Source of the DNA: Candidatus Pyrohabitans jungbluthii
GTDB taxonomy: Archaea > Hydrothermarchaeota > Hydrothermarchaeia > Hydrothermarchaeales > BMS3B
Assembly: GCA_002010065.2 (NCBI GenBank)
Contig: MTMD02000002.1
Coordinates: forward strand, 416,001-480,000
DNA: 64,000 nucleotides
Direction: 5' to 3'
This document shows positions 1 to 45,484 of this stretch, in pieces. The notes under the pieces were generated by a model. The model searched no databases and had not been told where the DNA came from. It saw only the letters and a list, made by a program, of their open reading frames with translations. Position numbers and translations under genes: made by a program. Every line of letters starts with the position of its first letter. The stretch's first letter is position 1.

Positions 1-3000
1 CCCAGAACCAATTTCCGCCACATCCCAAGCTATAGAATTTACGACCCTTACGTAACAAGAAGCCGTATCGACAACGAATTTATCCCACCTTCTATTGGCA
101 AAATCATCTTCGATGTCAGCGGCGGCTTCGGATGCAACGACTAGGGCTCCTAAGCCTGTAATAGCTTTAGCTGCAGTTTTTTGAGTAACGAGTTTTGTTT
201 CTTTATCAACCAAAATATCGGAGAGGTCATCCACAACGCTATCAAGGTTCATATATTTCTTCTCGGCTTCTATAGCCTTTTCTATATCTCCCATGTTGAT
301 ATATCTTGTAACCCATCCCTTAAGCGTCCTGACGGAATTTTTAAGTGCATCTCTGATTCCTCTTATTTCTTCAACTTCCTGTTCGGTTTTCTTCGCTTGA
401 GTCTTAATACGGTCGTTTACAATACCTCTTCCTATTGCAAATGGTGTCCTAAACCTATCCCAAAGGCTGAGGGAGTCTTCGACATCAGTATTGCCATCGG
501 TTTCCACTGTACCTATTTCCTTAAGTGCATCATCCACGAACCTCTTTTCTTCCACGGTCAATTGCCTATTCTCCTCAATTGCACGCTGTATTGATTCGAT
601 CATGGTGTCCCAGACACTTTCCTTTCCGAGATCTGTGAAAAATTCCTCAATATTTTTTTCTTTTGCCTTATCCAGTATCTCATTTAACTCCTGCTTTTCG
701 GTGCTTCCACCGTTTATAACAGTTCCAAGCTCGTCGGCGATCATCCAAGCATTTGCACCAGTTGCGGGGTCTAAAACAAGCCAGCCATACATCTTTACTT
801 TCCCTATTCTAATAAAGTTCATCGGCGCAAATACGGTATATCCCTGCTCTACAGCGTTTTTGATACTTCTCTCTATGTTCGGCTCAGAAATGTTTAGCTT
901 GTCGATATTGTGCTGGTTAATATTGACGATAGGAACACCCAGCTCAGCTGCTCCTTTGAAAAGATTAATCGTAGAAACCCCGGTGGAATTGTAAAGGGTG
1001 TCGAAGAGTACATGCTCCCATGAGGAGGAGATTGCTCCGGCCATGAAGGCGAATTTTTTCTTCTCAGACGAGCTTCCCTGGATTGAGAGAATATTCCTAG
1101 CCAGGTCTATATGTGTATAGCCTGGCTCAATGGTTGTGGGGACACTTCCAAGATAATCGGTATCGAAAGTAACGCCCAATACAGCAACGGATGGGGAAGC
1201 TCTCCACCATCTTACCCCTTGCGCCTCCGCTAAGAGTTGAGAATTTAGGTCTGTCATTTCAAAGTAGCTAAGGAGACTGAGATACATCGACGCCCCGAGG
1301 GCGTGATCTATAAGGAGGTTCCCATTCAGATTTTCATAAATCCCATCTAATGTCCTTGCGGCCTGTTTCTTTATAACTTCAGAGGGCATTTTCCCCAGGT
1401 CAAAGGCCACCGCATAGTAGCCACCCACTTCCAAGGGAGAAGAAACCACATCTAGGTTATTTGGTGTTATTATGCTCACCCTAAGTTCTTGCTTAACTCC
1501 GAAGGAAGAAGCATTCCCCAAAGCGAAGGGTAGAGAATTAACTCTCAGTACAGGTCGATAATCAAGCATATAAGCGGGAATGTCTGTTAGCGACTCTTGA
1601 GAGTTGACGAATTCTGACATCGAGTCATCAGCTGGAATATAGTCAATGGTTATTTGGTTACCTAAAGTGTTTACTGAGGAGATGTTGAAGCTCAATACAG
1701 TTTTTCCTTCTTCAACTATCTCAATTTTAATAAGATGGACGAACTCTGCCGGGATTTTATTGTACCTTTCAGAAACTACTACTGAATATGGTAGGGTTCC
1801 TGGTATTATCTCCGGTCCTGTTTTAGGTGGTTTAGATGCATATAAAGCGTCAAATTCCTCCCATGTTAGATTCTTGTGCAGGAGGCCTATGTTCTCATAG
1901 TACCATTGGTCGCTCTGATTTTTGAGTTCTGCAGTTGAATTTGATATCATGGAAACGGTATCTTTGGAAAATATTGTATAGTCTTCTGTTATTTTAGTGC
2001 TATTGATTATGTACTCGAATAAATTATCTAGATCATAATCCAAGTCAGCAGTCGGATACGGCTCCTTAGGCTTATAGGGTACGAAGGTGGGGTCAAGAGG
2101 TATCCACTGCTCTGGAGCATTACCGCACGCCTCTCTATTTGCAATGTAGCCACGGTAGCATTCGTCCGAGTACATGCCGTAGGGTAGCTTTACCTCTACC
2201 CATACATGTTCTACGAGGATTTTCTTGTTGGATAACTCAGCCGGTACATAATTCTCCCAGAGGAGTTGAAGGGCTTCTTCAGTTGTGTTGACCCCGAGTA
2301 CCTGCATCATGTACTCTGGCTCTACCTCTACCGTTCCAATGACGAAGCGGGTCTGGTATCCCGCCGCCCTGAGCAGGTCGGATAGCAACGCAGCCTGGTC
2401 GAAGTCATTGCCTGCCTTCTCCCACATCGTCCACAGCGAGCCCTTCATGTAACCGTAGTAGGGGGTGTACTCTATTTCGTCCCTCACGTAGGCGTAGATT
2501 TTTGCTGGGTTGTGGTCGAGCTGGGCGGAAAGGTTGGCTATCTCGGGCGGCACAGGAGAAGCAGCGTCTCCCTGCTCCTCGGCGAAGGCGCTGGGCAGGA
2601 GCGTTGTGAGCTTCTCTATGAGTCTGCCGAGCAGGGGCTTCTCTTCCCGCGCTTCGGCGTGCTTCGGCAGCGGCTTTGGCTTCTCCTTGGGGAAGGTGGT
2701 GCGGGGTTTTATGGGCTTGCCCCCGCTGGGCCTGGTGGGAAGCTGCTCCGGTGCTTTAACCTTCACCGCAGGCTTTGCCGGCTTCTCGAGCAGAGGGGTG
2801 ATATCGCTGAGCAGAGGCTCAACCTGAGCAAGTGCGAGCATCGCCTCGGAGGTGTGGTTGCTCGCGATCTCCTCCCTGAGCCGGGTTAGGGCGGCTGAGA
2901 GGTTCTCAAGGCTGGAGAGGAGCCGCCGGTTTTCCTGCGTCACGAGGGCGACCACTTCTTCATGCTTCTCCAGCTTCTGCCTCGGGATGCGCTTCTTTAC

Positions 3001-3429
3001 CTTCTTCAGCTTCTTGGTGACGCTGTCGGCGGAGCTCCTGAACCTCTCGTCCGCCGTGGCGAGCTCGCTTTTTGATTGGTTGAGGACCGTGAGGTAGAAG
3101 TCGACCAACTTAAGCGCATCCTCGGTGTCGCCCTCCTCCAGCTCCATGCGTATGTCCTCGGTGAGCATGCGGAAGAGGGAAAGCTCACCCTTAAATCCCT
3201 GCTTCAGCCGGGAGAGCTCTTTAAGAGCATGAGTGTACTTGCCGCCCAGGGGTTCGAAGGGCGGATCCCTCAAACCGAGGGTTATAAGCATGAGGTTGAT
3301 AGCCTTCCCGAGGGGAGAATCCCCTCTGGGCTGAGAAGCCCCGCCTGGCAGTGCGCCGGCTGCGGCGTAGGCGGCTGGAACAGGGGAGAGGAGCATGAGG
3401 AGTATCATGAAAAGCGCTCTGCCGCTCAT
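1..3429 (-). CDS. Large secreted transglutaminase-like-domain protein, probable polymorphic-toxin/effector carrier (>=1143 aa, 3' end beyond window edge)
   Basis: Absent from the ORF track because there is no stop inside the window. ATG at 3429-3427 overlaps the TGA of the 2000-aa gene. Manual translation is open to position 1. Signal-peptide-like N-terminus MSGRALFMILLMLLSPVPAAYAA; TGase-like motifs YTPYYGYMKGS, GNDFDQAALLSDLLRAAG, EHVWVEV, WIPLDPTF; later SSWEHVLF and GWLVLDPATGANAWMI...INGG. Confidence 0.85.
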   Translation of the reverse strand, partial: MSGRALFMILLMLLSPVPAAYAAAGALPGGASQPRGDSPLGKAINLMLITLGLRDPPFEPLGGKYTHALKELSRLKQGFKGELSLFRMLTEDIRMELEEGDTEDALKLVDFYLTVLNQSKSELATADERFRSSADSVTKKLKKVKKRIPRQKLEKHEEVVALVTQENRRLLSSLENLSAALTRLREEIASNHTSEAMLALAQVEPLLSDITPLLEKPAKPAVKVKAPEQLPTRPSGGKPIKPRTTFPKEKPKPLPKHAEAREEKPLLGRLIEKLTTLLPSAFAEEQGDAASPVPPEIANLSAQLDHNPAKIYAYVRDEIEYTPYYGYMKGSLWTMWEKAGNDFDQAALLSDLLRAAGYQTRFVIGTVEVEPEYMMQVLGVNTTEEALQLLWENYVPAELSNKKILVEHVWVEVKLPYGMYSDECYRGYIANREACGNAPEQWIPLDPTFVPYKPKEPYPTADLDYDLDNLFEYIINSTKITEDYTIFSKDTVSMISNSTAELKNQSDQWYYENIGLLHKNLTWEEFDALYASKPPKTGPEIIPGTLPYSVVVSERYNKIPAEFVHLIKIEIVEEGKTVLSFNISSVNTLGNQITIDYIPADDSMSEFVNSQESLTDIPAYMLDYRPVLRVNSLPFALGNASSFGVKQELRVSIITPNNLDVVSSPLEVGGYYAVAFDLGKMPSEVIKKQAARTLDGIYENLNGNLLIDHALGASMYLSLLSYFEMTDLNSQLLAEAQGVRWWRASPSVAVLGVTFDTDYLGSVPTTIEPGYTHIDLARNILSIQGSSSEKKKFAFMAGAISSSWEHVLFDTLYNSTGVSTINLFKGAAELGVPIVNINQHNIDKLNISEPNIERSIKNAVEQGYTVFAPMNFIRIGKVKMYGWLVLDPATGANAWMIADELGTVINGGSTEKQELNEILDKAKEKNIEEFFTDLGKESVWDTMIESIQRAIEENRQLTVEEKRFVDDALKEIGTVETDGNTDVEDSLSLWDRFRTPFAIGRGIVNDRIKTQAKKTEQEVEEIRGIRDALKNSVRTLKGWVTRYINMGDIEKAIEAEKKYMNLDSVVDDLSDILVDKETKLVTQKTAAKAITGLGALVVASEAAADIEDDFANRRWDKFVVDTASCYVRVVNSIAWDVAEIGSG

Positions 3430-6400
3430 TTCTTACCGCCTCCCTTCTTCGGCTCTATGGTTACATTCGAAACCAGCTCAACGGTCTCGTTCCCCTCAGG
3501 CGAGGAGTAGGTGATGAGCGTTTTGAGCGTGAAGGTGGTGGTCTCGCTCACCTCGGGGTTGAGGAGCACGTACTCCAGGGTTCTGCTGCTTCTTGGTTCG
3601 AGGGCGGTAAAGCTCCAGGTTATGCTGCTGTTCGCGGCGCTGCCGTCGCTGGAGTCTATCACAAACGCCTCCGGTATCTCCTCGGTTACGGTAACGTTCT
3701 CCGCCGACACGCTGCCCGTGCTGGAAATGCGTATGCTCACTCTGGTCTTAGCTGCCTTGCCCTCGTCCTGAGGCTTGAGCTCCTTGGTAGCGCTGAGGGA
3801 GGCGATGCTCTCGCATGCTTCGAGGCTCCACAGGAGAGCACGCTTTGTAATGTTGAGCCACACACTGGCGTTGTAGCCCTCGTAGGAGCTGAGCGCGATA
3901 TCCGGGGCGAAGAAGATGACCCTGCTTCCGTTGTAGTAGGAGAGGGTTAAGGCGGGGTAGCTCTCAGTCTCCTTTGTCGGCAGCATGTCCAGGGCATAGG
4001 CAAGCACCCTGTAGGTGTATTCCGGCTCAATCTTCGCGAGCCATCCCACCGTGGTGAGGTTCGCTCCCACATAGCCAGCGGTAAGGTGGTGCTCCTCCGT
4101 TATGGTCAGATTCCTGGGCTGATACGGCTCGCCCATCGGCAGGCTGCCGAGGTACTTGAAGCCGGCGATGTCTCCAAGGCCGGGATTGGCCTTGAGGGTG
4201 TAGTCGGAGAATATCAGCTCCCTGGTGAGGCTTCCCCGCTCACTCAGCCATGCCTTTATCTCCTCTATTTCGGTGCTATTCAGCTCCCCTTCTTCAGTGC
4301 AGTCGTACTCGCAGTGCCCCATGTTCAGGAGCCACAGCACGGTGTAGTAGCTGCTCCGAAGCTCGTGCATCAGCTCCTGCGTGGTGTTCACCTTCTTCAC
4401 GTAGGCTATCTCTTTAGCGGCTTCGTCGATGAACCACTCGTCGCTGGCATCGCCACTCCAGGCAAGCACCAGGATGGGGATTACTGTTACATTCGCCGAG
4501 GAGGAGTTGTAGTAGGCATAGCCGTCCTCGTCGTAGTAGGTGATGTTCAGGTTAAGGGTTATGTTGCGGATTTCGGGTATGAGCTGCGCCTCTGCAGAGA
4601 AGTTCAGGAGCACGCCATCCTTTGGCGGAAGCTCGAGGCTCCAGGTTACTGTGCCGGTGCTGGCGTTGAAGGATGCGTTTTCCAAGGTGTTCTCCAGCAC
4701 CCTGAGCTCCTCGGGTACTGTCAGGAGAGCGGTAATATTGACTGCGTCGTCGTAGCCGAGGTTGGTGATGTTCACCGCCACCGCAATGCTGTGGCCGCTG
4801 TAGGCTGCGCTGGGTGTGATTATCTCCCCTTTCAGCAGGGGTATCGGCTTGACCAGGAGCGTTTTCTCCACGCTGGAGACGTATGTTCTGCCGTAGTAGT
4901 CGAGGTAGAAGGCCTTCGCTCTGAGGGTGTAGTTTACGGGGTCGAAGCTGTGGATGAAGGGTGTGAGGAAGGTGTAGGCGACGCCTGCGCTTCCTTCGCT
5001 GGTGATGTCGCCCAGCTGCCAGGTTATGGTGGTGGTACCGCCATTGTAGTCGCCGGAGTAGCTAAGGGCGGTGAAGTTCTCCGGCAGAAGTGCGACGAGG
5101 GAGGTGTTGACAGCGGTGTTCTCCCCGGTGTTCCTCACTGTTAGGTTCGCATTTACCACCTTCAGGGCCCTTGTAGCGTAGGTGCTGAGGCTCTCCTCTA
5201 CTACCAGGTGGGGCACCTCAACGACCCTGAAGGATTTGGAGGCGGCCGCAAGGGCGGTGCCGTTCCTCAGCCTTAGAGTGGCATTAAGGAGGTACTCACC
5301 GCTTCCGTTGCGCGGGGTGAAGTAGTTGTGCACGTATTTTACCTCTCCAGGAGCTATTGCCGGGACATTGAGCACCCACCTGCTCAGGGTGGAGTTCCTC
5401 TTCGTCAGCAGGAATTCCACATAGGAGTCTTCTAGGGGCGTGTTCGGGCTGGTGTTGTTTATCTTCACGTAGGAGTCGACGATCTCGCCCAGCCTGTAGA
5501 CACCCCTATCGGTGAACAGGTTCATCTCCGCGCCTATTGCGCTGGCCATCTCGAAGAACGTGGTGGCGTTGGCCAGGGTGACGTTCAGCTCTCCTATGAG
5601 GGTACAAGCAACGGTGTAGTTCCCGGGCGCAAGTAGAGAGGTGTTGTTCAGAGGCAGAGAGAAGCTCAGGTTGCTCGATGGTGGAAGCACCGCTATCTCC
5701 ATGGGCTGCGCAGAAACTCTCGCGCCGGTGGGTGTGTCGATAAACGTGCGCAGGGTGAGGTTGCCCAGCGTCTGGTTGCCGTTGTTGCTCACCGTGCCGA
5801 CAAGCTCTATGGTGTCGTAGGGTGAATATACCCGCCTGCTCGTATTTATGCTGAGGCTCACCACATTCAGAGCTTCCACCTGCAGGGGCGGGAACTCTCT
5901 GACGACGCTGGCTGAGGTTACGCCGTCGACGTAGCTTATTCTCGCCTTTGAGATGTTCCTCTTCTCAAGGGCGGAGAGGACGAAGGAGACGTTGTACAGG
6001 ATGTTTATGGTCTCCCCGTTCTGTATCTCGGGGAATATCCATACAAGGGTGTTGTTGGCTGTATAGTTGGGAGGAGTGATGGGCTCCGCCTCGCCGTAAA
6101 GCACCTCCTCCTCGTAAGTGACGTTTATTCCAGCCAGTAGGTGGGTGCCGTCCAGGATTTCACGTTGATAGTTCATGGCTTCAACCAGCTCCTCATAGCT
6201 GGTGGTGAAGTTGAATAAACCGCTGGTTACACCCGTTACGGAGCCTGTAGTGGTGGAAGGAGTGGTGGGAGCTTCTCCGGGTTCTTCGGCAGCAGGCGGA
6301 GGAGGCTGAGGAATGAACACCGGTATGTAATAGTATACTACGATGGACGCTTCGGCGATATTACCACTGGTGTCAACGGCTCTGACGGTTATCCTGTTTG

Positions 6401-9400
6401 CTCCGTAGCGGAGGGTTAGGGGCTTACCCCAAGAAGTTGTGCCGTCCGCCGGTTCCCAATCTCCGTAATTCAGCCTTACTTTCACCTCCCTAATCCCCCT
6501 GTTGTCCGAGGCATTGCCTTGCAGCACTATACTGCTCGTCTCAAAACTCTGATATGTCTCCGGATATAAAATGGTCACATTGGGCGGAGTAGTATCCGGG
6601 GCACCTCTGATTACGGTGATAGAAGCATTAGCCGCAACACCCAACGTGTTGGTGGCCCTCACCACAATCACATTGGGACCTGGACGGAGGGTTACCACTT
6701 TCTCCCAGTGAGCAGTCCCGGAAGCTGGCTCATACGGCTCACCGTTAACACTCACCTCCACTCTGGAGATTCCTCTCTCATCATATGCAGTGCCATTAAC
6801 CACCACAGTCTCAGTGTAAACCGTTTCGTTGTTCTTTGGATAGGCAATCTCTATAGACGGCTGGATGTATTCCAGGGGATAGCATCCGCCATCGGAGGCG
6901 CAGATTGTACCCGAGGGGCAGAATTCACGTGTTATGCTGTATCCCTTTGGATATGAGGAGGAGAGGATACAAACCACATCATAGGGGTCGGAGTTTGTGT
7001 CCGCTGCAATGCATTCGTCACTCAGCTTAGCATAACAGCCCATATTCTCAGCCAAGCATAGAGCACTGTACTGGTAATTGGCACAGAAAGAAACAGCTTC
7101 TTCGCCATTCTTACCGCATGCTTTGTAGCCAGCAGGACCATACCACCGTTCATTAGTTTGACGCCAGTACTCTAATATAGGTAGTTCGTACTTATTATCA
7201 GAGTGATAATGCTCATAAATGTATTGCCTATAGAAGAAATCGGTGACGCTGCACTCAACACCAACTAAATTGACAGGATATTCTTCTATTTTTTCATAAT
7301 AATCGTAATTTGTTAATAGCCGATAATATTCATACCTACATGGTCCCCTTTTCTTGGTAAATGTATAAATGTTTAAATATCTTGGGGTAGAATAAGCGGG
7401 TATCTCGCCCTCATATGCTTTAACTGATATCATATCGCCGGTATCTGGGGATACCAGCCCAAACATTGAAGCGGGAGCCCAGCATTCTACAATAAAAGTC
7501 TCACCAGCATCAAACACACCATTGTTATTCGGGTCGCTTACAAGCGTGCAGTTCTGACTGCTGTTTTTACTGACCCATGCAGAAGCGCTTTCCTTTACCT
7601 CAAGGTAGTCTCCAATTTTAAGGAATTTAACTCCAATCTTCCACTCCCTCTTGGAGGAATCCAGATTCTTGGCATTTACTTTCACCCTTATCTCCTTCGT
7701 TGGCAGCACAAATATGTCGCCATAATCAATCCATGCGTTCCTGCTGGTATCATATATTTTAAAAGAGACCTCCATGGTCGGTTCTGGGAGATATGGGCAG
7801 TAGCCACCTCTTGCTATGTCAGTGGAGGTGCATTGTAACCCAGAAGCATCGAGGGCAGATCCGCCAAGTGGGTCCGCGCAGTATCTTATTCTGGCGGTAT
7901 TACAGGAGATTTTTCCAAGATAGGTGGTATTCAAAATAAGGTCCACTGCCCCAGAAGAGTGTATAAAACCCTGATTGGAAAATGCGATATTGGATGAGAT
8001 ACTTATGTTTGCTGAGAGGGGGTTGCCATCAGCACACTTATCATCACCCACACCTCCTGTGCCGATTAAAGAAGAAATGTTTCCTTTGCTGGTTATGATG
8101 AGTAAATCGGCAGATATGGCTACTTTTCCGGCATCACCGCCTCTTGCATTCTTATAGCAGCCACAGCTAATTTCGCTGCTAAATCTCCCCCCATTCCCAC
8201 CGTTCGCTGCAATAGAAGTGTTTACTATAACCATGGCTGCCTGAATATCAACCACTCCACCGTTGCCTCCTGGTCCGCCCTGTGCGTCGCCCCTTCCCTT
8301 ACCTCCCCGGGCGCCGTTCACATAAATCGGGAAATTAATGCTCACATTTGTGCCTCTGAGTATCACGCTTCCGCCGTTTCCACCTTTGCCGCCAAAACCG
8401 GTACAGGCATCGTCATCGCTGCTTTCATATCCACTTCCACCCCGTCCGCCAACCGCCTTCAGGTAACCATTGACAGTTATTTCCGAATTGGATTTAATAT
8501 AGATTTTTCCAGCATTTCCGCCGTCTCCACCGTCCCTGCCGAATCCTCCGTTTGCGGTTATGCTACCGCTAACAACTGTTTTATCGGAATTGATAGTTAT
8601 CGTACCTCCAGGACCGGCACTCCCACTATGGCGATACGCATCCCCCGAATTCCCACCTGCAGCAAAAATATCCCTCCTTATATAAACCTCACCAGCATCT
8701 ATACTTATTGAACCTGCTGTTCCTCCACCGCCACCGAAACCATAGCCCTTACCATTTCCGCCATTTCCACCATTTGCAGAGACGACCGAGTTAATTAACA
8801 CTTTTGATGCTTTGAAATAAATCGAACCTCCGCTTCCTCCTCTCCCACCATCCGAATCGGTACCACCACCTCTCCCGCCGTCCCCGCCTCGTGTGGATAG
8901 GGGGGCATACACTCTTATCTCAGTTGCTTTAAAATTAATTAGACCTGCACTACCTCCGGTTCCGCCAGTTCTGTAACTTCCACCTATTCCACCAATTCCA
9001 CCATTCGCGGAAACTGCTCCATAGATGTTAATTTTTTCTGCCTTAACAAAGATTGAACCACCATGCCCACCGCTTCCACCATTCTGCAACCATCCTCCAT
9101 TTCTCCCTCCTCCCCCATTCGCAGAAAGACTTGCACCAGCGTTTATTTGGAAAAGATTGTTCGCATAAAATCTAACATTTCTCGAATTCCTGCCCTCTTT
9201 TGGCACCACTACTGTACCGGTGATGTAGATGTTTGGAGCTTCACAGACGTAGGTTTGGGCATCAAGATTGCATTTTTCTTCAATATCTGCTGCTGAAGAA
9301 ATGTACAAATCAGATTCTAAAGCATAAGAAGAATGGGTAAAGAATATTAAAACGAAAATGCCTAATAAAGAAATTCTCTTAAACCATATGAATGGAATTC

Positions 9401-9428
9401 TTACAATAGGGAGGATTATCTTATTCAT
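3426..9428 (-). CDS. 2000-aa extracellular/surface protein: Gly-rich repeats, Cys-rich region, two Ig-like (Big) repeats, P/T linker, CARDB/DUF11-like Ig domains
   Basis: N-terminal hydrophobic signal; repeated GGxGGxGGxIxIxA units; two similar Ig repeats (VxVNGTAYDERGI / IxLQGNASDNRGI); PQPPPP...TTPSTTT linker; many N-x-S/T sequons in the C-terminal half. Confidence 0.85.
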   Translation of the reverse strand: MNKIILPIVRIPFIWFKRISLLGIFVLIFFTHSSYALESDLYISSAADIEEKCNLDAQTYVCEAPNIYITGTVVVPKEGRNSRNVRFYANNLFQINAGASLSANGGGGRNGGWLQNGGSGGHGGSIFVKAEKINIYGAVSANGGIGGIGGSYRTGGTGGSAGLINFKATEIRVYAPLSTRGGDGGRGGGTDSDGGRGGSGGSIYFKASKVLINSVVSANGGNGGNGKGYGFGGGGGTAGSISIDAGEVYIRRDIFAAGGNSGDAYRHSGSAGPGGTITINSDKTVVSGSITANGGFGRDGGDGGNAGKIYIKSNSEITVNGYLKAVGGRGGSGYESSDDDACTGFGGKGGNGGSVILRGTNVSINFPIYVNGARGGKGRGDAQGGPGGNGGVVDIQAAMVIVNTSIAANGGNGGRFSSEISCGCYKNARGGDAGKVAISADLLIITSKGNISSLIGTGGVGDDKCADGNPLSANISISSNIAFSNQGFIHSSGAVDLILNTTYLGKISCNTARIRYCADPLGGSALDASGLQCTSTDIARGGYCPYLPEPTMEVSFKIYDTSRNAWIDYGDIFVLPTKEIRVKVNAKNLDSSKREWKIGVKFLKIGDYLEVKESASAWVSKNSSQNCTLVSDPNNNGVFDAGETFIVECWAPASMFGLVSPDTGDMISVKAYEGEIPAYSTPRYLNIYTFTKKRGPCRYEYYRLLTNYDYYEKIEEYPVNLVGVECSVTDFFYRQYIYEHYHSDNKYELPILEYWRQTNERWYGPAGYKACGKNGEEAVSFCANYQYSALCLAENMGCYAKLSDECIAADTNSDPYDVVCILSSSYPKGYSITREFCPSGTICASDGGCYPLEYIQPSIEIAYPKNNETVYTETVVVNGTAYDERGISRVEVSVNGEPYEPASGTAHWEKVVTLRPGPNVIVVRATNTLGVAANASITVIRGAPDTTPPNVTILYPETYQSFETSSIVLQGNASDNRGIREVKVRLNYGDWEPADGTTSWGKPLTLRYGANRITVRAVDTSGNIAEASIVVYYYIPVFIPQPPPPAAEEPGEAPTTPSTTTGSVTGVTSGLFNFTTSYEELVEAMNYQREILDGTHLLAGINVTYEEEVLYGEAEPITPPNYTANNTLVWIFPEIQNGETINILYNVSFVLSALEKRNISKARISYVDGVTSASVVREFPPLQVEALNVVSLSINTSRRVYSPYDTIELVGTVSNNGNQTLGNLTLRTFIDTPTGARVSAQPMEIAVLPPSSNLSFSLPLNNTSLLAPGNYTVACTLIGELNVTLANATTFFEMASAIGAEMNLFTDRGVYRLGEIVDSYVKINNTSPNTPLEDSYVEFLLTKRNSTLSRWVLNVPAIAPGEVKYVHNYFTPRNGSGEYLLNATLRLRNGTALAAASKSFRVVEVPHLVVEESLSTYATRALKVVNANLTVRNTGENTAVNTSLVALLPENFTALSYSGDYNGGTTTITWQLGDITSEGSAGVAYTFLTPFIHSFDPVNYTLRAKAFYLDYYGRTYVSSVEKTLLVKPIPLLKGEIITPSAAYSGHSIAVAVNITNLGYDDAVNITALLTVPEELRVLENTLENASFNASTGTVTWSLELPPKDGVLLNFSAEAQLIPEIRNITLNLNITYYDEDGYAYYNSSSANVTVIPILVLAWSGDASDEWFIDEAAKEIAYVKKVNTTQELMHELRSSYYTVLWLLNMGHCEYDCTEEGELNSTEIEEIKAWLSERGSLTRELIFSDYTLKANPGLGDIAGFKYLGSLPMGEPYQPRNLTITEEHHLTAGYVGANLTTVGWLAKIEPEYTYRVLAYALDMLPTKETESYPALTLSYYNGSRVIFFAPDIALSSYEGYNASVWLNITKRALLWSLEACESIASLSATKELKPQDEGKAAKTRVSIRISSTGSVSAENVTVTEEIPEAFVIDSSDGSAANSSITWSFTALEPRSSRTLEYVLLNPEVSETTTFTLKTLITYSSPEGNETVELVSNVTIEPKKGGGKK
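8050..9130 (-). repeat. Coding Gly-rich degenerate tandem repeat (about 45 aa period, roughly 7-8 units) inside the 2000-aa gene
   Basis: Units such as SANGGxGGxG...GGxGGxGGSIxIxA recur; on the + strand they appear as cc(a/g/t)cc runs. Confidence 0.75.
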
Positions 9429-11502
9429 TCTCCCCCTCCTTAGAGTAAATTATCATATAAACAGGAATCCCATTTTCAGCTGCCCACTCGATAGCGCTCA
9501 GGGGATCGTCATAGCTAGGAGCCCTCACCACAGTGAAGATGTACCAGTTTTTGTCCCCCCTACCGTTTTCCAGTAAGATTTCGACGCTTCTGTTTATCCC
9601 CTCTCCGAGTTTGAGTATCGGTGCTCCTATCGTTATGCTCGAAATTGCACTCAGCGCTGCATCTCTGTCTGTTGATAGATTCAATAAGACTGTGGTGGTG
9701 TTTGAGACAGCGACCACGGCAACTCTGTCTCCCACGGCAAGGGAAGTGACGAAGGAATTCAGAGCGGTTTTCACATCCTCTAAGGCAGAAGTGGAGAGGT
9801 TGGTGCAGTCCACTAAAATAACGACATCTGCCGGGGGCTTGCCAGTTTTGCCCTGGATTGTGACGTTTATGGTGGCAGTGACTCTTCCAGGTGGGAAGGT
9901 TTCTGAGCTTATCCTCCTTTCCACCCTAATCCTAGGCCCGATGGATAGTGCTGAATACGTTGTCCCCCCTTCCACAAGTGCTCCATCTTTATAGACCCTA
10001 GCAATGACCGGGTAGGTTCCGTAGGCAAGGTTTCCGGTATAGAGGGTACCCACCTTAATGTATCCCCTCTTCCCGACGTTGAGGGTGGCGGTGGTGTTGC
10101 TGGACCAGAAGACCGTCTGATTGGGAGATAAAAGTTCAACCTCTATAAAAGCATCGCTGATGTTCCTGTTGCCGATGTTTTCCACATCTAGATAGAAATT
10201 CACCAGCGATTTTATGTCGGCATGGGACGGAATTATCTCCAGCCTGTGAATCCTAACCTTTTGCGTTGGAAGGACGTTCAACTCCGTCTGATTCGCGTGA
10301 ATCACGCGGCCTTCGCCATCTCTAATTTCCACAATCAAGTATGCAGCACCAGGCATGAGATGGTCGGTGACAAAGTAGGAGGAATAGCCCACCACAGAAC
10401 CCGCTGTGAAATCTCGTATGAGCTTGGGTGGGAGAATTTTTACGATTTTCTTTTCCTGAACCACCTTGCCCACAATTATTATATTTTTCTGATTTTCTCC
10501 CAAATTGGAAATCTGGGTAAATAGCGAATATTCCTCACCAGCTGGTATTGAGAAATTCGCAAGGGTGGAGTTGTCTTTTTTTATAATTAGGTTCCCCATC
10601 CTCAGGGCGATGCTCGATTTCAGATACTCCTGCAGGGCAAGCAGGCATTGTGATGTCGTATATGCCCTTCCTGAAGCATCAAGTCCCCAGCTTCCATCAG
10701 GGTTCTGACTATTTATCAGTGCTGTGACAAGATTCTCTTTCTCATCAGCAAAATGGCCATTATAAACTAAGGCTTGTAGAGCATTTGCTAATTCGAGTTC
10801 GCCAGAAAGTGTCCCCAAATTCTCCGAAAGATGAGCTGCGGATTTGTAGCCAGCCTTGTAGGCGTCCTCATTGAATATCAGCTCATTGTCAGTTAAAACG
10901 AAGGATAATTTTCCAAGTGTCTGAGAAGCCAAGGCTGTGTAAAGATTATCTGGCGCAAAAGAGCCATCTTGTTGCTGGATTTTCTCCAAGTAGGCGATTC
11001 CCCTTCGCAGAGAAGTGGAATTTGGGCTGGATTTTTTTAGCGCCTCCAATGCGAGGGAGGTATCAATTATGTTGCTTGAGAAAAACGTTGAATATCCCCA
11101 GCCACCGTCTGAGTTCTGGAAAGAGACCAACGATGAGGCATTTGCCCCAATTAGGAGGACTTTTCGGGAGAGGAAATCAGTCCCCTCTATATTGGCAAAA
11201 GAAATCCAGGATTTGCCATTTTCAATGGTGTCTGAAGCATCTATGTAATCTTGATTCTCAAGGGCTAATATGGCTTCGGCTGTACTCCATGGCAGACCTC
11301 CATCCCAGCTGCCATCGGCATTCTGGTTAAGGACCAACCAAGATGCTCCTTTTTCGATGCTATCCTGGACAGATAACCCAAACACCGGGCTTATGCATAG
11401 TGATAAGACCAGAAAAAGTCCACTGAAATGTAATAATCCCTGTATTATGTTTCCATCTGGAAATTGGCAGGCCAAACCTTTTAGCATGGTCCCTGCATCC
11501 AT
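9421..11502 (-). CDS. Secreted prenyltransferase/squalene-cyclase-repeat (alpha/alpha toroid) protein with Ig-like domains and a C-terminal truncated vWA domain
   Basis: Repeats QNADGSW, QNSDGGWG, QQQDGSF, QNPDGSWG; vWA start PADVVILVD...DRVAVV; hydrophobic signal LFLVLSLCISPVFG. The track start at 11640 runs through an AT-rich promoter-like region, so ATG 11502 or 11487 is more likely. Confidence 0.75.
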   Translation of the reverse strand: MDAGTMLKGLACQFPDGNIIQGLLHFSGLFLVLSLCISPVFGLSVQDSIEKGASWLVLNQNADGSWDGGLPWSTAEAILALENQDYIDASDTIENGKSWISFANIEGTDFLSRKVLLIGANASSLVSFQNSDGGWGYSTFFSSNIIDTSLALEALKKSSPNSTSLRRGIAYLEKIQQQDGSFAPDNLYTALASQTLGKLSFVLTDNELIFNEDAYKAGYKSAAHLSENLGTLSGELELANALQALVYNGHFADEKENLVTALINSQNPDGSWGLDASGRAYTTSQCLLALQEYLKSSIALRMGNLIIKKDNSTLANFSIPAGEEYSLFTQISNLGENQKNIIIVGKVVQEKKIVKILPPKLIRDFTAGSVVGYSSYFVTDHLMPGAAYLIVEIRDGEGRVIHANQTELNVLPTQKVRIHRLEIIPSHADIKSLVNFYLDVENIGNRNISDAFIEVELLSPNQTVFWSSNTTATLNVGKRGYIKVGTLYTGNLAYGTYPVIARVYKDGALVEGGTTYSALSIGPRIRVERRISSETFPPGRVTATINVTIQGKTGKPPADVVILVDCTNLSTSALEDVKTALNSFVTSLAVGDRVAVVAVSNTTTVLLNLSTDRDAALSAISSITIGAPILKLGEGINRSVEILLENGRGDKNWYIFTVVRAPSYDDPLSAIEWAAENGIPVYMIIYSKEGENE

Positions 11503-11690
11503 TAAATATTTGAAAAATTTTTTATAAAGCGCGTATTTTTTAAAACCTATATATAATTTTTTAGAAATTTCTTTCAAATAAAATCGATGATTTGCATTTA
11601 GTAACTTTTTGTTATTGAACACGCCTTCAAAAAATGGCAATGCCTATTTTCATCCCTCATGGCCATAAGTGAAGTATCTCCAAGGTTTAA

Positions 11691-12278
11691 CTATTCAATC
11701 GTCGCATGCCTGGTGCGCATCTCCTCCTCTGTTTTTCCAAGCCTCACCATGAGCTCTACTATTAGCGCATCAAGGAAGATAAGAACTGAAATTTCAAAAA
11801 GTGTGCCGAGGGGTGCGAGAGGATAATGTTCCCCCTTTATCTGGCGCATCACAAAGTCCTTCTCTCCGCGAAGCTTCGTCCTGCCCTCTACCACAACCAC
11901 AATGTCCGCTAACCTCCCTAGGGAAGAGTTGGGATAGGTGGTGATAAGCGCCACCTTTGCGCCTATATTCTTCGCTATTTTTGCAGCGTTCACCACGCTT
12001 GTGGTCTCACCCGAGCCTGAGATGGTTATGAGCAGGTCTTCGCGTTCAATCGCCGGCGTTATAATCTCCCCCACCACAAATACGTTTATACCCAGGTGCA
12101 TGAGGCGCATCGCAAACGCCTTGGCTACGAGCCCACTTCTGCCGGCACCGTACACAAACACCTTCTTAGAAGAGAGTATCGCATCAATGAGGGCCTCCAC
12201 CTCTTCCTCACCCAGCCCTTCAGCCACATCCTCTACATGCTTCGTTATAGTAAAAATCGCCTCCTTCAGAACTTCCAT
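11691..12278 (-). CDS. hxlB: 6-phospho-3-hexuloisomerase (SIS domain)
   Basis: VFVYGAGRSGLVAKAFAMRLMHLG, ISGSGET, APLGTLFE, C-terminal RHATIE. Confidence 0.93.
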   Translation of the reverse strand: MEVLKEAIFTITKHVEDVAEGLGEEEVEALIDAILSSKKVFVYGAGRSGLVAKAFAMRLMHLGINVFVVGEIITPAIEREDLLITISGSGETTSVVNAAKIAKNIGAKVALITTYPNSSLGRLADIVVVVEGRTKLRGEKDFVMRQIKGEHYPLAPLGTLFEISVLIFLDALIVELMVRLGKTEEEMRTRHATIE

Positions 12279-25282: not shown

Positions 25283-25572
25283 ACCCCTATCAACCCCAGA
25301 TCCCAGATGCCCCACAGAATGGCGATTAAGCCGGCGATGCGCAGCGCAGCCTCTGCCATGCTCTTCCCGACAAAGATTATCACCAGACCTATAACCACTG
25401 GGAATATCGCTTCCAGGTTTATCGCAAAGCCGCTCAGGTAGTATTTCACCCCTCCGATGAGAATGAAGCCCACGCCTATGATGTTGAGAATCATGCCCAC
25501 AACGCGGGGGGCGATGAGTATAAGCACGAGACCAATGGCAATTTTAATCAGAGGCTCTGCTCCCAGGTTCAT
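25279..25572 (-). CDS. Small hypothetical membrane protein (3-4 TM helices)
   Basis: 97-aa, almost entirely hydrophobic ORF filling the gap between thiL and the next gene. Confidence 0.7.
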   Translation of the reverse strand: MNLGAEPLIKIAIGLVLILIAPRVVGMILNIIGVGFILIGGVKYYLSGFAINLEAIFPVVIGLVIIFVGKSMAEAALRIAGLIAILWGIWDLGLIGV

Positions 25573-25651
25573 GTATATATTTTTTCCTGCGGGGGAGTTA
25601 AATAGCTTTCGCAGGACAAGCTTTATTAGCCACCCTGCGAATACCCTTGCG

Positions 25652-26401
25652 ATGATTGAGGCAGAGTTTCTGATTGAAGCTCAGGGTAACGATAGGGATG
25701 CCGTAGCCAGGTCGCTTCGCGAGCTGGAGGAGAAGATAAAGGCTGAAGATGGGGTCAGGCTTCGCAAGGCGGAGTATGGTGATGTGGTGAAGGAGGAGCT
25801 GTTCTACTCTGCGGTTGCCGAATTTCAGTTGGAATTTGCTAACCTTCAGAGCTATCTCAATGCGGCGATAAGGTATGGTCCCTCCGCGATATACGTGCTC
25901 AGCCCGGAGAGGCTCACCCTCACCGCAGAGGAATTTCTCCTAACCCTTGGTGAGATAATCAAGCTGGCGCGGAAGTTTTACCAGAGCTACCACGTGGGGT
26001 TTGAGTTTGAGCCAGAGGAAGAGGTGAGCGTTGGTATCGAGGATTACGAGATAGAGGAACTGCTTAAAGAGGGAGCGATTCACGTCAAGCTCGTTGCTGA
26101 GGTCATGGCTGAGAGCGAGGCAGAGGCGGTGAGAATCCTTGTGGGGGATATTAAAGATGAGGCACCGGTAAATAAGGTGAAGAGCACCTTTAATGAGGAG
26201 AGCGGAGCCTACCTCGTTGCAGTGGATGCTTTCGCCTTGGATGCGAGGGCGCTGTTTAGCATAGCACTGCGCCATGTCCCTGTGCTCATAGAAATCCTTG
26301 AGCCAAAGGAGATAACACTGAGCATGCTCGACCTTCAGGACATTGCCCTCGACATCGCAGGTGTGTTTTTTGAAGCCTCTCAAAGGCTGGCGCTGAGCTG
26401 A
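25652..26401 (+). CDS. Conserved archaeal hypothetical protein with internal duplication
   Basis: Two similar halves (…RYGPSAIYVLSPERLTL / …RHVPVLIEILEPKEITL). Start moved to ATG 25652 to avoid overlapping the divergent gene. Confidence 0.75.
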   Translation: MIEAEFLIEAQGNDRDAVARSLRELEEKIKAEDGVRLRKAEYGDVVKEELFYSAVAEFQLEFANLQSYLNAAIRYGPSAIYVLSPERLTLTAEEFLLTLGEIIKLARKFYQSYHVGFEFEPEEEVSVGIEDYEIEELLKEGAIHVKLVAEVMAESEAEAVRILVGDIKDEAPVNKVKSTFNEESGAYLVAVDAFALDARALFSIALRHVPVLIEILEPKEITLSMLDLQDIALDIAGVFFEASQRLALS

Positions 26402-26439
26402 GCCAAAAGGTTAAATATGGCAACGCCCACCTCAGTGGC

Positions 26440-27708
26440 ATGGAAGCTCTTCTTAAAAGGCTGGAGGAGCATTTTAGGAGGAAGGAGTGGAAGGAGCTTG
26501 AGGAGGTGAGCAGTGAGCTACTTGCCTCCAACCCAGAGGGTAAGCTCAAGGCACTGGCAGAGGGTTTTAGAAGCTATGCACGCGCGAGGCAGGAGAGTGA
26601 GCCCGCGAAGATAATTCCCGAGCTTGAGAGAGCTGTGTCCGCCTTTAAAGGTGTGGACGAGCTTTTGTACTCGATGGCAACTACAGAGAGGCTCCTGCTT
26701 CTCTCTGTCTTTGATGAGGCTAACAGGGGGCGGCATCTCAAGGCTCTGGGGGAGTTCTCCCTCAATCGCTTCATGAGAACCCAGAGCGAGGGCGACATTC
26801 GGCTTGCGATTGAGGCGCTGGAGCGTGCAAGAGAGCACCTCACGGGGAGAGAGCTTGCGGAAGCTGAGCTCAACCTCACCTTCTGCTATGGGTGCTGCGC
26901 GGCGGTCAGCGATAATCCAAAGCGCGAGTATGAGAGGGTGATAAGTCTATGCGAGGAGCTGGAGGAGCGCTACCAAGAGGACAAAGCCACGCTTGCAAGG
27001 CTCAGGATGAACCATGCAACAGCACTTCAGAGCCTTGCGCAAGTCTCGGGCTCAGAGGCGGTGGCGCTGCTTGAGAAGGCAGCTACATTAAGCCGCGAGG
27101 CAGCTGACATTTTCAGTGAGCTTGGTGCGAAGGTTGAGGAGGTGAGGGCGCTTCAGAGCCTTGCGAATATCTACAGGGACGCTGCAACCCTGGCAGAGGA
27201 GGGCGAGGGCTACCTTGAAAGGTTTATTAAGGTTAAGAAGGAGATAGCAAAGCTCTTCAGCGAGGCTGAGTACACAGCAAAGGCTGCCATTGAGGAGCTT
27301 GAGGCAGGCGTGGCAAGGCTTGAGCTCGCAGCCAAGCGTGGGGTGAGGGCTGAGATTGAGACAGCGCTTAAGGAGATTGCAAAAGTGTCAGAGGTCTTCA
27401 GGGAAGAAGGTCTTAAGGAGGAGCTTGCACATTCCCTCGCTGCTATGGGCGCTGCTTACAGGAGCCTCGCATCCTTCAGCGACGACGCAACGGAGCTTCT
27501 CGGCAGAGCGGTTGAGAGTTACGGGGAAGCGATAGGCATATTCTCGAGGAGTGGGAAGCAGGCATACCTTGGCGCGGCGAAGGCGGCACTCGCACAGGTT
27601 TACCGTGACTTAGCTGCGCTCTCCTCAGACGCCGCCCATAAAGAAAAAGCTGAGAAGCTTGAGAGAGAAGCAAGAGAAATCCTTGAGCAGAGCAGTAAAA
27701 ATGAATAA
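26440..27708 (+). CDS. TPR-like alpha-helical repeat protein
   Basis: Repeating motifs such as ALQSLANIYRD, SLAAMGAAYRSL, ALAQVYRDL; A/E/L-rich. Confidence 0.75.
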   Translation: MEALLKRLEEHFRRKEWKELEEVSSELLASNPEGKLKALAEGFRSYARARQESEPAKIIPELERAVSAFKGVDELLYSMATTERLLLLSVFDEANRGRHLKALGEFSLNRFMRTQSEGDIRLAIEALERAREHLTGRELAEAELNLTFCYGCCAAVSDNPKREYERVISLCEELEERYQEDKATLARLRMNHATALQSLAQVSGSEAVALLEKAATLSREAADIFSELGAKVEEVRALQSLANIYRDAATLAEEGEGYLERFIKVKKEIAKLFSEAEYTAKAAIEELEAGVARLELAAKRGVRAEIETALKEIAKVSEVFREEGLKEELAHSLAAMGAAYRSLASFSDDATELLGRAVESYGEAIGIFSRSGKQAYLGAAKAALAQVYRDLAALSSDAAHKEKAEKLEREAREILEQSSKNE

Positions 27709-39351: not shown

Positions 39352-40527
39352 TTACTCCTCCTTCTCCTCCCTCCTCCCCCTCTCTGCAATCTCCCGCATG
39401 TCATCGTATATCTCCCTGGAAAGCTCGTCGAAGTCGGCTATGCGCCTGCGCAGCAGCTTGAACTTCTCAAACACCCGAGAAAAGCGTTCACTCACCTCCC
39501 CGCGGTTGCGCAGCATTCTGCCCAGCTGGTACAGGTAGCGTATCCTGTCGGAGCGGCGAATGCCTGAGTAGAGCACAGTAACCTCAAGGCTGCGCTTGTC
39601 GCTCGCTGGCAGGTCACCGCCTCTAACCTCGCCCTCAAGCTGTTTCTCAATCCATAGCCTGGAGGGTATGCTCCCCAGAAAGTCCAGGTAACGCCTTGGC
39701 CCTGAGACAACCACCAGGGCGCGCTTCGCCGCCGCCAGATCGAAGCTCACCAGCGTAGCCTGAGAAGCTTTTTTGGTCAGGTGTACCACAAGCTCGGGCT
39801 TATCCAGGTTTTCCTCCCCGCCGCCAAAGAGCGAGCCTGAGCTTCGCATCTCCTTGCCGGCTAAACCTATGCTCGAGACACCCGAAAGGGTATTTATCAC
39901 GTCGGTTGCGCCCAGCACATTGCTCCCCAGCTCTTCTGGCGCACGGTATTCGCCAACCTCGAAGAGATTGTTGAAGTACCTGAAGATCTTCTCGTTAATC
40001 ACATTGAGCTGCCCCTGGACGCGGAGCCCTTCGCTCAGCGCCTCATTGTCCACAGGAAAGACGGCATCGCTCTTGGCAACTATCGGTTTAAAACTCTCTG
40101 AGAAGTTTATAAGTGCGCGGTCAACATCCTGCTCGCTTGGTAAGATGCCCAGGTAGTACACCGGCTCTGTGTAGCTCTTCTTAAGCTCATCTATAAGCAT
40201 GTCCACGCCACCGCCTGTGCCCCCGCCGAAGGCTGAGATCACAAGCAGGCAGTCGAAGGTATCCTTCACGCGGTCTATCAGCTCGACGACGTTGTACTTC
40301 TCCTCATCCAGAATCTGCCTCCCCATCTCAATGTCGTAGTTTGTGCCGTTGCCGTCAAGCAAGCGCTCGCCAAGGAGGAGCTTGTGCTTATGCGGTAATG
40401 CAGCGAGCGTAAGGGCATCGCTGTCTAAAAGCACGCCAGTGTAGGGTACCCTGGAGCGACCTTCCTTTAGAAATACGCTTGCAATCTTACATCCAGCCCT
40501 GCCGACGCCTACAATCAGCGGCTTCAA
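39352..40527 (-). CDS. Divergent tubulin/FtsZ-superfamily (CetZ-like) protein with C-terminal coiled coil
   Basis: GVGRAGCKIA, FGGGTGGG, VDN, VINTL, RGGDLP; TTG start. Confidence 0.88.
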   Translation of the reverse strand: MKPLIVGVGRAGCKIASVFLKEGRSRVPYTGVLLDSDALTLAALPHKHKLLLGERLLDGNGTNYDIEMGRQILDEEKYNVVELIDRVKDTFDCLLVISAFGGGTGGGVDMLIDELKKSYTEPVYYLGILPSEQDVDRALINFSESFKPIVAKSDAVFPVDNEALSEGLRVQGQLNVINEKIFRYFNNLFEVGEYRAPEELGSNVLGATDVINTLSGVSSIGLAGKEMRSSGSLFGGGEENLDKPELVVHLTKKASQATLVSFDLAAAKRALVVVSGPRRYLDFLGSIPSRLWIEKQLEGEVRGGDLPASDKRSLEVTVLYSGIRRSDRIRYLYQLGRMLRNRGEVSERFSRVFEKFKLLRRRIADFDELSREIYDDMREIAERGRREEKEE

Positions 40528-40544
40528 TTGCTTCTCTCCCTACT

Positions 40545-41363: not shown

Positions 41364-41378
41364 ACATCTTTCCTCCTG

Positions 41379-42395: not shown

Positions 42396-42404
42396 CCACC
42401 CACC

Positions 42405-45475: not shown

Positions 45476-45484
45476 CTCACCTCC

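Follow-up and report, generated by a model that had tools for sequence, protein, structure and literature searches.

A candidate RHS-less polymorphic toxin operon with a transglutaminase-like carrier in the archaeon Candidatus Pyrohabitans jungbluthii

The closest described relatives of the locus considered here are the Sec-dependent RHS toxins, for which passages of Zhang et al. (2012, Biol Direct 7:18, PMC3482391) describe a signal peptide followed by a transglutaminase-fold (TGase-fold) domain that has lost its cysteine. The locus consists of three genes, g1, g2 and g3, which are minus-strand open reading frames (ORFs) in the first 11.6 kb of a 64,000-nucleotide stretch of the Candidatus Pyrohabitans jungbluthii genome (contig MTMD02000002.1, positions 416,001 to 480,000), referred to below as the window. 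The last gene, g3, encodes a putative polymorphic toxin that likewise has a signal peptide and, further on, a TGase-fold domain without the cysteine, and residues 199-920 of the protein share a homology of about 700 residues with RHS proteins from Thermoanaerobaculia and Duganella and with ten others. As in those toxins, the C-terminal domain is variable and immunoglobulin (Ig)-type domains are encoded nearby; a giant Ig-rich protein lies upstream in both bacterial loci.

What sets g3 apart from the RHS toxins is that it contains no RHS repeats, DUF6531 or Big_1 domain, the carrier being fused straight to a variable tail of about 270 residues. Its TGase domain comes only after a helical region that follows the signal peptide, its host is archaeal, and it closes a translationally coupled trio that includes a toroid-VWA protein; no counterpart of this protein was seen in the upstream DNA of the bacterial loci as far as it was in view. 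Lacking RHS repeats, g3 falls outside the RHS-toxin architecture, and the locus is probably a new archaeal, RHS-less variant of the Sec-dependent polymorphic toxin system. The original prediction of a polymorphic toxin system is supported in part.

Two further systems invite comparison. Pore-forming colicins and pyocin S5 are modular, with the carrier or receptor part first and the killing domain last, and g3 would have the same order, with a predicted all-helical C-terminal domain of about 170-190 residues that appears to end in a Gly/Ala-rich, uncharged last third that follows an amphipathic K-G-L-G...D...G-x-Y/W segment. Colicins are plasmid-borne and released by lysis, whereas g3 is chromosomal and apparently exported by Sec, and no opposite-strand immunity gene of the colicin kind is visible for g3 within the window. 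In archaea, VARTIG comprises large secreted Ig-domain proteins with recombination-driven C-terminal variability, as set out in parts of Makarova et al. (2021, Front Microbiol 12:721392, PMC8416519), and in these respects resembles the present locus. According to the same parts, however, VARTIG occurs only in Thermococcales and varies in an Ig domain, while what varies in g3 is a helical domain of membrane-active appearance, borne by a TGase-like module; transglutaminase has 0 mentions in the available text of that paper.

A full-text search found no literature linking Hydrothermarchaeota with transglutaminase, and an earlier description in archaeal polymorphic-toxin surveys is possible; among the literature matches listed, judged by titles and abstract openings, none described an archaeal colicin-like toxin. 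To our knowledge little has been documented of antagonism in which archaea face one another or bacteria, and only for a few archaeal protein toxins has a mechanism been proposed. The locus is a concrete candidate for the use of an RHS-toxin carrier module without the RHS cage, with a candidate membrane-permeabilising domain whose link to colicins is weak but reproducible. A breakpoint, a shift in base composition and an orphan-like fragment indicate that this deep-branching, uncultured archaeal phylum exchanges cassettes in the way polymorphic toxins do.

The g3 carrier module and its RHS relatives

The g3 gene (1-3429, minus strand) runs off the edge of the window, which holds codons 1-1143 of 1188. 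A database protein of 1188 residues, P0057, is identical to the window sequence over these 1143 residues and continues for 45 more, so that only 45 codons of g3 lie beyond the window and the putative effector domain falls within it. The original prediction, which was made from the sequence alone, had expected a large C-terminus outside the window; this was mistaken, and the candidate effector is instead the last ~230 residues of g3 that the window already contains.

The protein begins with a signal peptide (residues 1-23, 3361..3429, minus strand) that has a basic residue, a hydrophobic core and an AYA cleavage site followed by A, the elements of a secretion signal. Signal peptides were called heuristically, from a hydropathy scan and inspection of the sequence, and cleavage of g3 was placed by eye between ...PAAYA and AAG. 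About 250-270 residues, helical and Pro/Lys-rich, lie between the signal peptide and the TGase core; about 500 residues precede the core in the Thermoanaerobaculia protein. An AlphaFold2 model of g3 built from an 18-sequence alignment has a mean predicted local distance difference test score (pLDDT) of 66.3 and a predicted template modelling score (pTM) of 0.64. Its confident parts are an N-terminal region of four long helices (residues ~60-250, 2680..3252, minus strand; block pLDDT mostly 74-92 over residues 60-210), the TGase core (pLDDT about 90) and a middle domain at residues 540-910 (block pLDDT 62-92, residues 700-706 excepted). A Foldseek search with the full-length model gave no match at E<=0.001 and only found the TGase fold again, and phmmer searches of the PDB with g3 and with the TGase core alone gave no match.

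The core itself (residues 308-447, 2089..2508, minus strand) matches Transglut_core in Pfam (PF01841, E=2.7e-11), and this match, together with TGase-fold chains such as PeiP, 3isr and CPR-C4 in the Foldseek results (probability 0.96-0.98, but E>0.08), raises the question of whether g3 could be an active transglutaminase or an enzyme of the cysteine-protease fold cross-linking or trimming proteins of the envelope, such as g1 and g2 in the course of their maturation, in the manner of pseudomurein endoisopeptidases. The residues of the catalytic triad speak to this question. His408 and Asp446 are retained in g3 and are common in its family: the His column has 14 His, 1 Gln and 1 Ser in 16 sequences, and the Asp column has 13 Asp, 1 Ala, 1 Met and 1 Leu. 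The alignment to PDB 3isr, a putative cysteine protease, places GVCRDFA over GNDFDQA of g3, however, with Asp342 in place of the nucleophile Cys, and the Cys column of 15 sequences contains 13 Asp, 1 Ala, 1 Thr and 0 Cys. Not one of the 15 sequences has the nucleophile, and the family persists although the Asp is lost in 3 of 16 and the His in 2 of 16. The TGase core of g3 is thus predicted to be catalytically dead, and an active enzyme seems to us very improbable. The missing nucleophile matches the inactive transglutaminase domain of polymorphic toxins in the relevant passages of Zhang et al. (PMC3482391), where the same conclusion is reached for the bacterial forms.

Beyond the core lies a conserved middle domain of mixed beta/alpha structure (residues ~540-910, 700..1812, minus strand; alignments A1 and A5). 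It ends in the motif W-L-V-x-D-P-x-T-G-A-x-A-W-M-I, past which the family diverges, and it may be a receptor-binding or pre-toxin part.

The g3 family is rare, with 7 near-length proteins among 5.8 billion clusters in a word-indexed search. Scanning genome contigs with a 4-sequence alignment (A2) identified three loci, one of them archaeal (L001) and two bacterial, from Thermoanaerobaculia (L002) and Duganella (L003). The bacterial proteins match g3 over residues ~199-920 at 24-25% identity (tblastn/BLASTP), and in both loci the matched module makes up the N-terminal portion of an RHS-repeat protein, 3928 aa and 2275 aa long respectively. In a search restricted to longer proteins, every longer relative of g3 (12/12) carries RHS repeats (PF05593). 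These RHS proteins differ in their C-termini, P0020 having a Scabin-like ADP-ribosyltransferase and P0019 a DUF6765 domain. On this sequence evidence the core module of g3 (~200-920) and the module at the N-terminus of bacterial RHS polymorphic toxins are homologues. The repeats themselves are another matter, as RHS_repeat, DUF6531 and YD-shell models found no match in g3, its L001 orthologue or P0004-P0009, and a full length of 1188 aa leaves g3 no room for RHS repeats. The proposal that the TGase-like protein serves as a carrier is supported by the homology of its core with the RHS toxin module and by the loss of the nucleophile Cys.

Directly upstream of the RHS gene, both bacterial loci encode a giant CARDB/DUF11/Ig/MG2/beta-propeller protein with pAdhesive_15. 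Bacterial clusters of TGase-like and CARDB proteins, which the original prediction had cited, do exist in L002 and L003. In L002 the pAdhesive_15 domain is fused to the C-terminus of the giant protein, and in L003 it forms a separate 337-aa ORF (8348-9361, plus strand) that overlaps the end of the giant gene in another frame; a frameshift is one possible cause, a real split the other. A 187-aa ORF in L002 (20236-20799, plus strand) has a 4-bp overlap with the stop of the TGase-RHS gene, where an immunity gene would be expected, and matches no Pfam family.

Apparent exchange of the 3' part of g3

The archaeal locus L001, from Candidatus Pyrohabitans sp. JdFR-17 (Hydrothermarchaeota), contains the same trio, with proteins of 688, 2238 and at least 1014 aa, in the same gene order and with 4-bp overlaps, so that the three genes co-occur elsewhere, as had been anticipated. 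It ends inside g3 at the contig end. The upstream neighbours differ, a PLD/TrmB-like gene in L001 and HxlB at the window operon. Identity to the L001 orthologues is 80% for g1, 79% for g2 (across residues 38-2000) and 68% for g3.

The lower value for g3 conceals a steep gradient. Calculated per 50 residues, protein identity to L001 is 78-94% over residues 1-450 and 40-58% over 451-900, and falls to <=24% or nil after 900. In nucleotide sequence the operons are 79-82% identical between window positions 11633 and 2036; the latter corresponds to g3 codon ~464, where homology stops, and beyond 2036 blastn finds a lone patch of 84 nt. Near this point the GC (guanine plus cytosine) content of window g3, measured per 300 nt, drops from 0.55-0.63 to 0.39-0.49, the lower values holding from codon 401 on, whereas that of L001 stays at 0.51-0.58. 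Taken together, the stop in homology and the fall in GC make the 3' ~2.2 kb of window g3 look replaced by foreign DNA. We place a recombination breakpoint at 2030..2042 (minus strand, about codon 464) from the blastn and GC profiles, and conclude from these sequence comparisons that the 3' ~2.2 kb of g3 appears to have been exchanged by recombination. The expectation of a conserved N-terminus and a variable C-terminus is thereby supported by the identity profile, the sharp breakpoint and the GC shift against L001.

GC content is patchy inside the operon, as seen at window positions 6001-12000 and 1-2000: it is 0.41-0.52 in g1 and the 5' 40% of g2, 0.52-0.63 from there through the remaining 3' 60% of g2 into the 5' part of g3, and 0.39-0.49 in the 3' two-thirds of g3. 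Of these boundaries only the last matches the homology breakpoint against L001.

Relatives of g3 carry several tail types. In Rhs and CdiA loci, displaced C-terminal modules lie downstream of the main gene as orphan cassettes. A comparable copy may be P0012, a 5'-truncated protein of 451 aa that begins at the equivalent of g3 residue ~660 and has neither the signal peptide nor the TGase core. P0012 is 82% identical to L001 g3 and 35% identical to window g3; its tail is thus nearer to that of another genome than to that of its own genome's g3, and in this it resembles an orphan cassette. Like orphan cassettes, which are summarised in sections of PMC3482391, P0012 keeps part of the conserved region together with an alternative tail, and, as in Rhs and CdiA, the breakpoint with its GC shift lies inside the conserved region of g3. 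The contig on which P0012 was found measures 697,940 bp, as does the longest contig with window g1 and full-length g3, so P0012 apparently shares a contig with the window operon. In line with the idea of orphan cassettes, an orphan-like, 5'-truncated copy with another tail exists, apparently on the same contig, though not within the window.

Other rearranged copies are known. P0058, a variant of P0012 from another assembly, has another 5' end and a divergent C-terminal end. A second genome encodes both a full-length relative, P0059 (1156 aa), and a derivative, P0014 (431 aa), on a contig of 423,057 bp. P0014 is a natural deletion derivative in which the tail follows straight on the N-terminal helical region, the TGase domain and middle module being gone; by eye, the junction has a short repeated PQGNPS stretch.

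The variable tail and the pore-forming bacteriocins

The variable C-terminal domain of g3 occupies residues ~915-1143 in the window (1..687, minus strand) and the 45 residues beyond it. It is predicted to be all-helical, with an amphipathic stretch followed by an uncharged segment of 18 residues, and its C-terminal end is hydrophobic, though less so than the N-terminal segments of the three proteins. The archaeal-type tails are of several types with the last ~125 residues in common. A profile of seven other tails scores the window tail at 36.9 bits, the maximum in 1000 shuffles being 8.9. The domain is rare, found at E<=0.001 in 8 proteins among 1.84 billion representatives. One of these is P0017, a 239-aa fragment (E=9.5e-6) that starts NPLKYTDPTG. 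The motif NPxxxxDPxG ends the RHS core in the L002 protein, P0019 and P0020, and the position of the P0017 tail behind this motif implies that the domain also occurs where RHS proteins carry their toxin. The tail of P0020 was considered as being of the same type as that of g3 and was ruled out by a score of -7.1 bits.

Profile searches against 177,635 PDB sequences repeatedly brought up pore-forming bacteriocins. With a 4-sequence tail profile the top two matches are the pyocin S5 pore domain (1.1e-3) and colicin Ib (0.013), and with an 8-sequence profile colicin Ib (3.5e-3) and pyocin S5 (0.015) rank first and fourth. For a direct comparison we used 11 colicin-type channel domains taken from plasmid records. 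Aligned to these by hhalign, the tail gives a probability of 88.8% and a score of 45.8 over 99 columns, a score reached by 0/100 full column shuffles (maximum 16.9) and 0/100 local 12-column shuffles (maximum 23.1). The tail profile gives 3 of the 11 colicin domains, Ib (20.2 bits), that of Arsenophonus (23.2) and K (12.4), higher scores than any reported shuffle, whether global (1069) or local (1100). PF01024 Colicin is the one named family among 30 ESM Atlas neighbours (rank 17, score 0.88), a finding that we treat as a lead only. Pfam matches to the tails at E<=10 are noise (MLKL_N 0.13, GNAT 0.06). From these sequence-level likenesses the g3 tail is a probable membrane-permeabilising, colicin-related toxin domain.

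A possible mode of action can be outlined from the domain content. All three proteins would be exported by Sec and glycosylated, the gene for AglB being within the window. The g2 protein, Gly-rich and with a long Ig-like array, perhaps together with g1 (toroid, Ig-like and VWA domains), would form an adhesive stalk or scaffold, on which the dead TGase module would dock g3 through peptide binding, a function that passages of Zhang et al. (PMC3482391) propose for the inactive module of the bacterial forms. The helical C-terminal domain would then insert in the membrane of a contacted neighbour as a colicin/pyocin-type pore and dissipate ion gradients, while the producer would owe its protection to a small immunity protein in the membrane, the gene for which would follow g3 closely, beyond the window edge. 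Tail and middle domain would be exchanged by recombination near codon 464, with orphans left behind, and the archaeal form would dispense with the RHS cage, its carrier being fused directly to the toxin. We think it more likely than not that the three genes specify a cell-surface apparatus, exported by Sec and heavily N-glycosylated, of a Hydrothermarchaeota-like archaeon, and that the last of them is a polymorphic toxin gene. That the killing domain is a distant relative of colicin and pyocin channels, shown without RHS on a giant glycosylated three-protein surface apparatus of Hydrothermarchaeota, is a narrower proposal to which we give somewhat less than an even chance.

If this is true, colicin-type pore formers would extend to archaea and would need to act on archaeal membranes at high temperature, and channels formed by the tail would show how a colicin-type domain copes with such membranes. 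The inactive-TGase carrier and the upstream giant Ig-rich protein would then be an ancient cross-domain module for toxin display, predating or independent of the RHS cage. Their conserved pairing in both domains of life would suggest a means of display that experimenters have yet to address in either.

A number of results weigh against this interpretation. The hhalign match spans only the last ~100 columns, and by the tail profile 8 of the 11 colicin domains are indistinguishable from shuffles. Neither the window tail nor P0004-P0009 matches PF01024 even at E<=10, and an 11-sequence colicin hidden Markov model (HMM) scores the tails at -3.5 to 4.5 bits, within the range of shuffles (maximum 5.9). 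The AlphaFold2 model of the tail, from 8 sequences, is all-helical and unreliable (pLDDT 51.7); searched with Foldseek it returned no colicin, but ESCRT-III, JetABC and PI3K coiled coils, none at E<=0.001. The uncharged run of the window tail is 18 residues as against 31-52 in colicin domains. The tail profile matches the C-terminus of none of 15 TGase-RHS proteins, and, apart from domain classes in common, BLAST shows no likeness between g2 and the giant proteins encoded upstream in the bacterial loci. The placement of P0012 beside g3 comes solely from contigs of equal size. Because the g3 stop lies ~135 nt past window position 1 and L001 ends inside g3, the region where an immunity gene would be expected is out of view. 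The contacts among g1, g2 and g3 are ones that we infer.

Several of these points would equally suit a non-toxic adhesion, envelope or biofilm complex, in which the g3 C-terminus would anchor a g1/g2 scaffold on the producer and the mosaicism would reflect diversifying selection, such as virus evasion or kin recognition. The form of the tail bears on this directly. A C-terminal hydrophobic segment is present only in g3; g1 and g2 lack one and would have to be tethered, and the window tail, with its single uncharged run followed by a charged tail, is tail-anchor-like; against this, the uncharged stretches of 28-53 residues in the relatives P0004, P0005, P0006, P0012, P0059 and P0017 exceed what a single anchor helix needs. 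Likewise the colicin likeness of the tail is marginal and the reciprocal test fails, but the likeness to pore-forming bacteriocins ranks at the top and withstands the local-shuffle control. The 57 N-x-S/T sequons and Ig-like arrays of g2 are typical of archaeal surface proteins, and VARTIG, as described in parts of PMC8416519, shows that a hypervariable module of archaeal Ig proteins can have a polymorphic-toxin-like organisation. The company kept by g3 is harder to reconcile with an anchor: in P0017 the same tail stands behind an RHS-core end motif, in the toxin position of RHS proteins, the long relatives of the carrier module are all RHS toxins (12/12), and orphan-like truncated copies are a hallmark of toxin cassettes. 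A purely adhesive complex therefore appears to us unlikely, though it is the foremost competitor of the polymorphic toxin.

The operon, its putative scaffold proteins and the surrounding window

The polymorphic toxin gene is the last of three genes that are closely coupled. The direct sequence reading and the ORF list agree with the original prediction of three coupled minus-strand genes: g1 (9421-11502, minus strand) encodes 693 aa from its ATG, g2 (3426-9428, minus strand) encodes 2000 aa, and g1 and g2 overlap by 8 bp (ATGAATAA, 9421-9428) and g2 and g3 by 4 bp (ATGA, 3426-3429). A GGAGG-type motif lies a few bases 5' of both internal ATG starts, those of g2 and g3. For g1 there is an alternative TTG-start ORF of 739 aa (9421-11640). 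The L001 g1 protein aligns from residue 46/47 of this longer ORF, and this, together with a TATA-like element, favours the ATG at 11502, the start that had been proposed. The upstream region (11503..11640, minus strand) is AT-rich, and the TATA-like sequence TTTATAAAAAA lies at 11528-11518, 26 nt before the ATG. By its sequence, 11503..11640 probably acts as an archaeal promoter, from which the operon mRNA would start with a short leader or none. Nucleotide homology with L001 in this region reaches window position 11633 (blastn). A scan for bacterial-type sigma-70 promoters and terminators stayed at chance level, its model not being applicable to archaea, and a folding z of 0.33 indicates no structure in the g1 leader RNA.

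The hydropathy scan gives each of the three proteins a single N-terminal hydrophobic segment and none other above threshold, in agreement with the signal-like N-termini that had been read from the sequence, and Pfam matches confirm the domain calls for all three. GC content is 0.467 in g1, 0.516 in g2 and 0.488 in g3, compared with 0.538 for the rest of the window. The remainder of the window encodes archaeal housekeeping functions, including GatD/GatE, diphthine synthase, Trm5b, primase, PCNA, CetZ and AglB.

The g1 protein has a signal-like N-terminus, an alpha/alpha-toroid at residues ~46-300, an Ig-like middle and a VWA domain at its C-terminus (559-689, E=3e-9), in which the metal ion-dependent adhesion site (MIDAS) position reads DCTNL. 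Close relatives of g1 number three in 5.8 billion clusters (81%, 75% and 45% identity, the last partial). The g2 protein also starts with a signal-like N-terminus, and its Gly-rich repeat region (residues ~100-480, window 7989-9131, minus strand; 27-36 Gly per 100 aa over 101-400) may fold as a beta-solenoid. This is followed by a Cys-containing region (500-860), two Big_7/Glucodextran_B domains (857-1040), an Ig-like MG2/LacZ_4/DUF11/CARDB array (1195-1640), an unannotated domain of ~240 residues (1640-1880) and a terminal DUF11 (1894-1969). Pfam at E<=1 assigns no family to g2 residues 1-560, 500-860 and 1590-1880, phmmer finds no match for g2 among PDB sequences, and an ESM Atlas search with the Gly-rich region scores 0.80, which is the chance level. 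Tandem Repeats Finder reports merely two short 9-nt arrays in g2. The g2 orthologue of L001 has an additional Cys-/Tyr-rich N-terminal segment of ~250 residues (L001 3386-4142) that window g2 does not have, and the nucleotide homology between the two loci skips L001 3386-4142.

The domains of g1 and g2 could also be read as a complement or alpha2-macroglobulin-like defence or protease trap, with g1 supplying a thioester-type toroid, g2 an MG2/Ig body and the VWA domain a factor-B-like partner. PF07678, the complement-type thioester domain, is indeed present in many distant g1 relatives, but the toroid of g1 itself consists of QW-type squalene-cyclase/prenyltransferase repeats, with best PDB matches to squalene-cyclase-type proteins (E about 1e-7) and not to macroglobulins, and a search for the C.EQ pattern found no CxEQ thioester motif in g1 or g2. 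The MG2 matches of g2 are weak (E=8.8e-4, below the Pfam cut-off). Neighbourhoods of archaeal alpha2-macroglobulin homologues share genes with polymorphic toxin systems, as parts of PMC8416519 report, yet a trap would leave the RHS-type carrier and the exchangeable g3 tail unexplained, and we hold out very little prospect for it.

In the AglB/STT3 oligosaccharyltransferase of the window (60990-63908, plus strand, 972 aa), residues 677-768 form an Ig-like domain of the MG2 type (E=5.6e-8), a class also seen weakly in g2. Elsewhere in the window three tubulin/FtsZ-superfamily genes lie in a row (39352-43550, minus strand); a CetZ C-terminal domain is present in 39352-40527 and 42405-43550, the Tubulin domain only in 41379-42395, and a 272-aa ORF with no Pfam family (40545-41363) is interleaved among them. 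Two adjacent DUF2589 proteins (44828-46246, minus strand), the second fused to DUF4332, stand beside a 218-aa ORF of no family (43754-44410). The GC content is lowered to 0.48-0.49 at 42-46 kb relative to the surroundings. Two plus-strand ORF pairs complete the list: an adjacent pair of 314 and 422 aa at 25457-27708, with no Pfam or NCBIfam family, and a pair of 318 and 531 aa at 47734-50282, with no Pfam family, whose members overlap by 4 bp.

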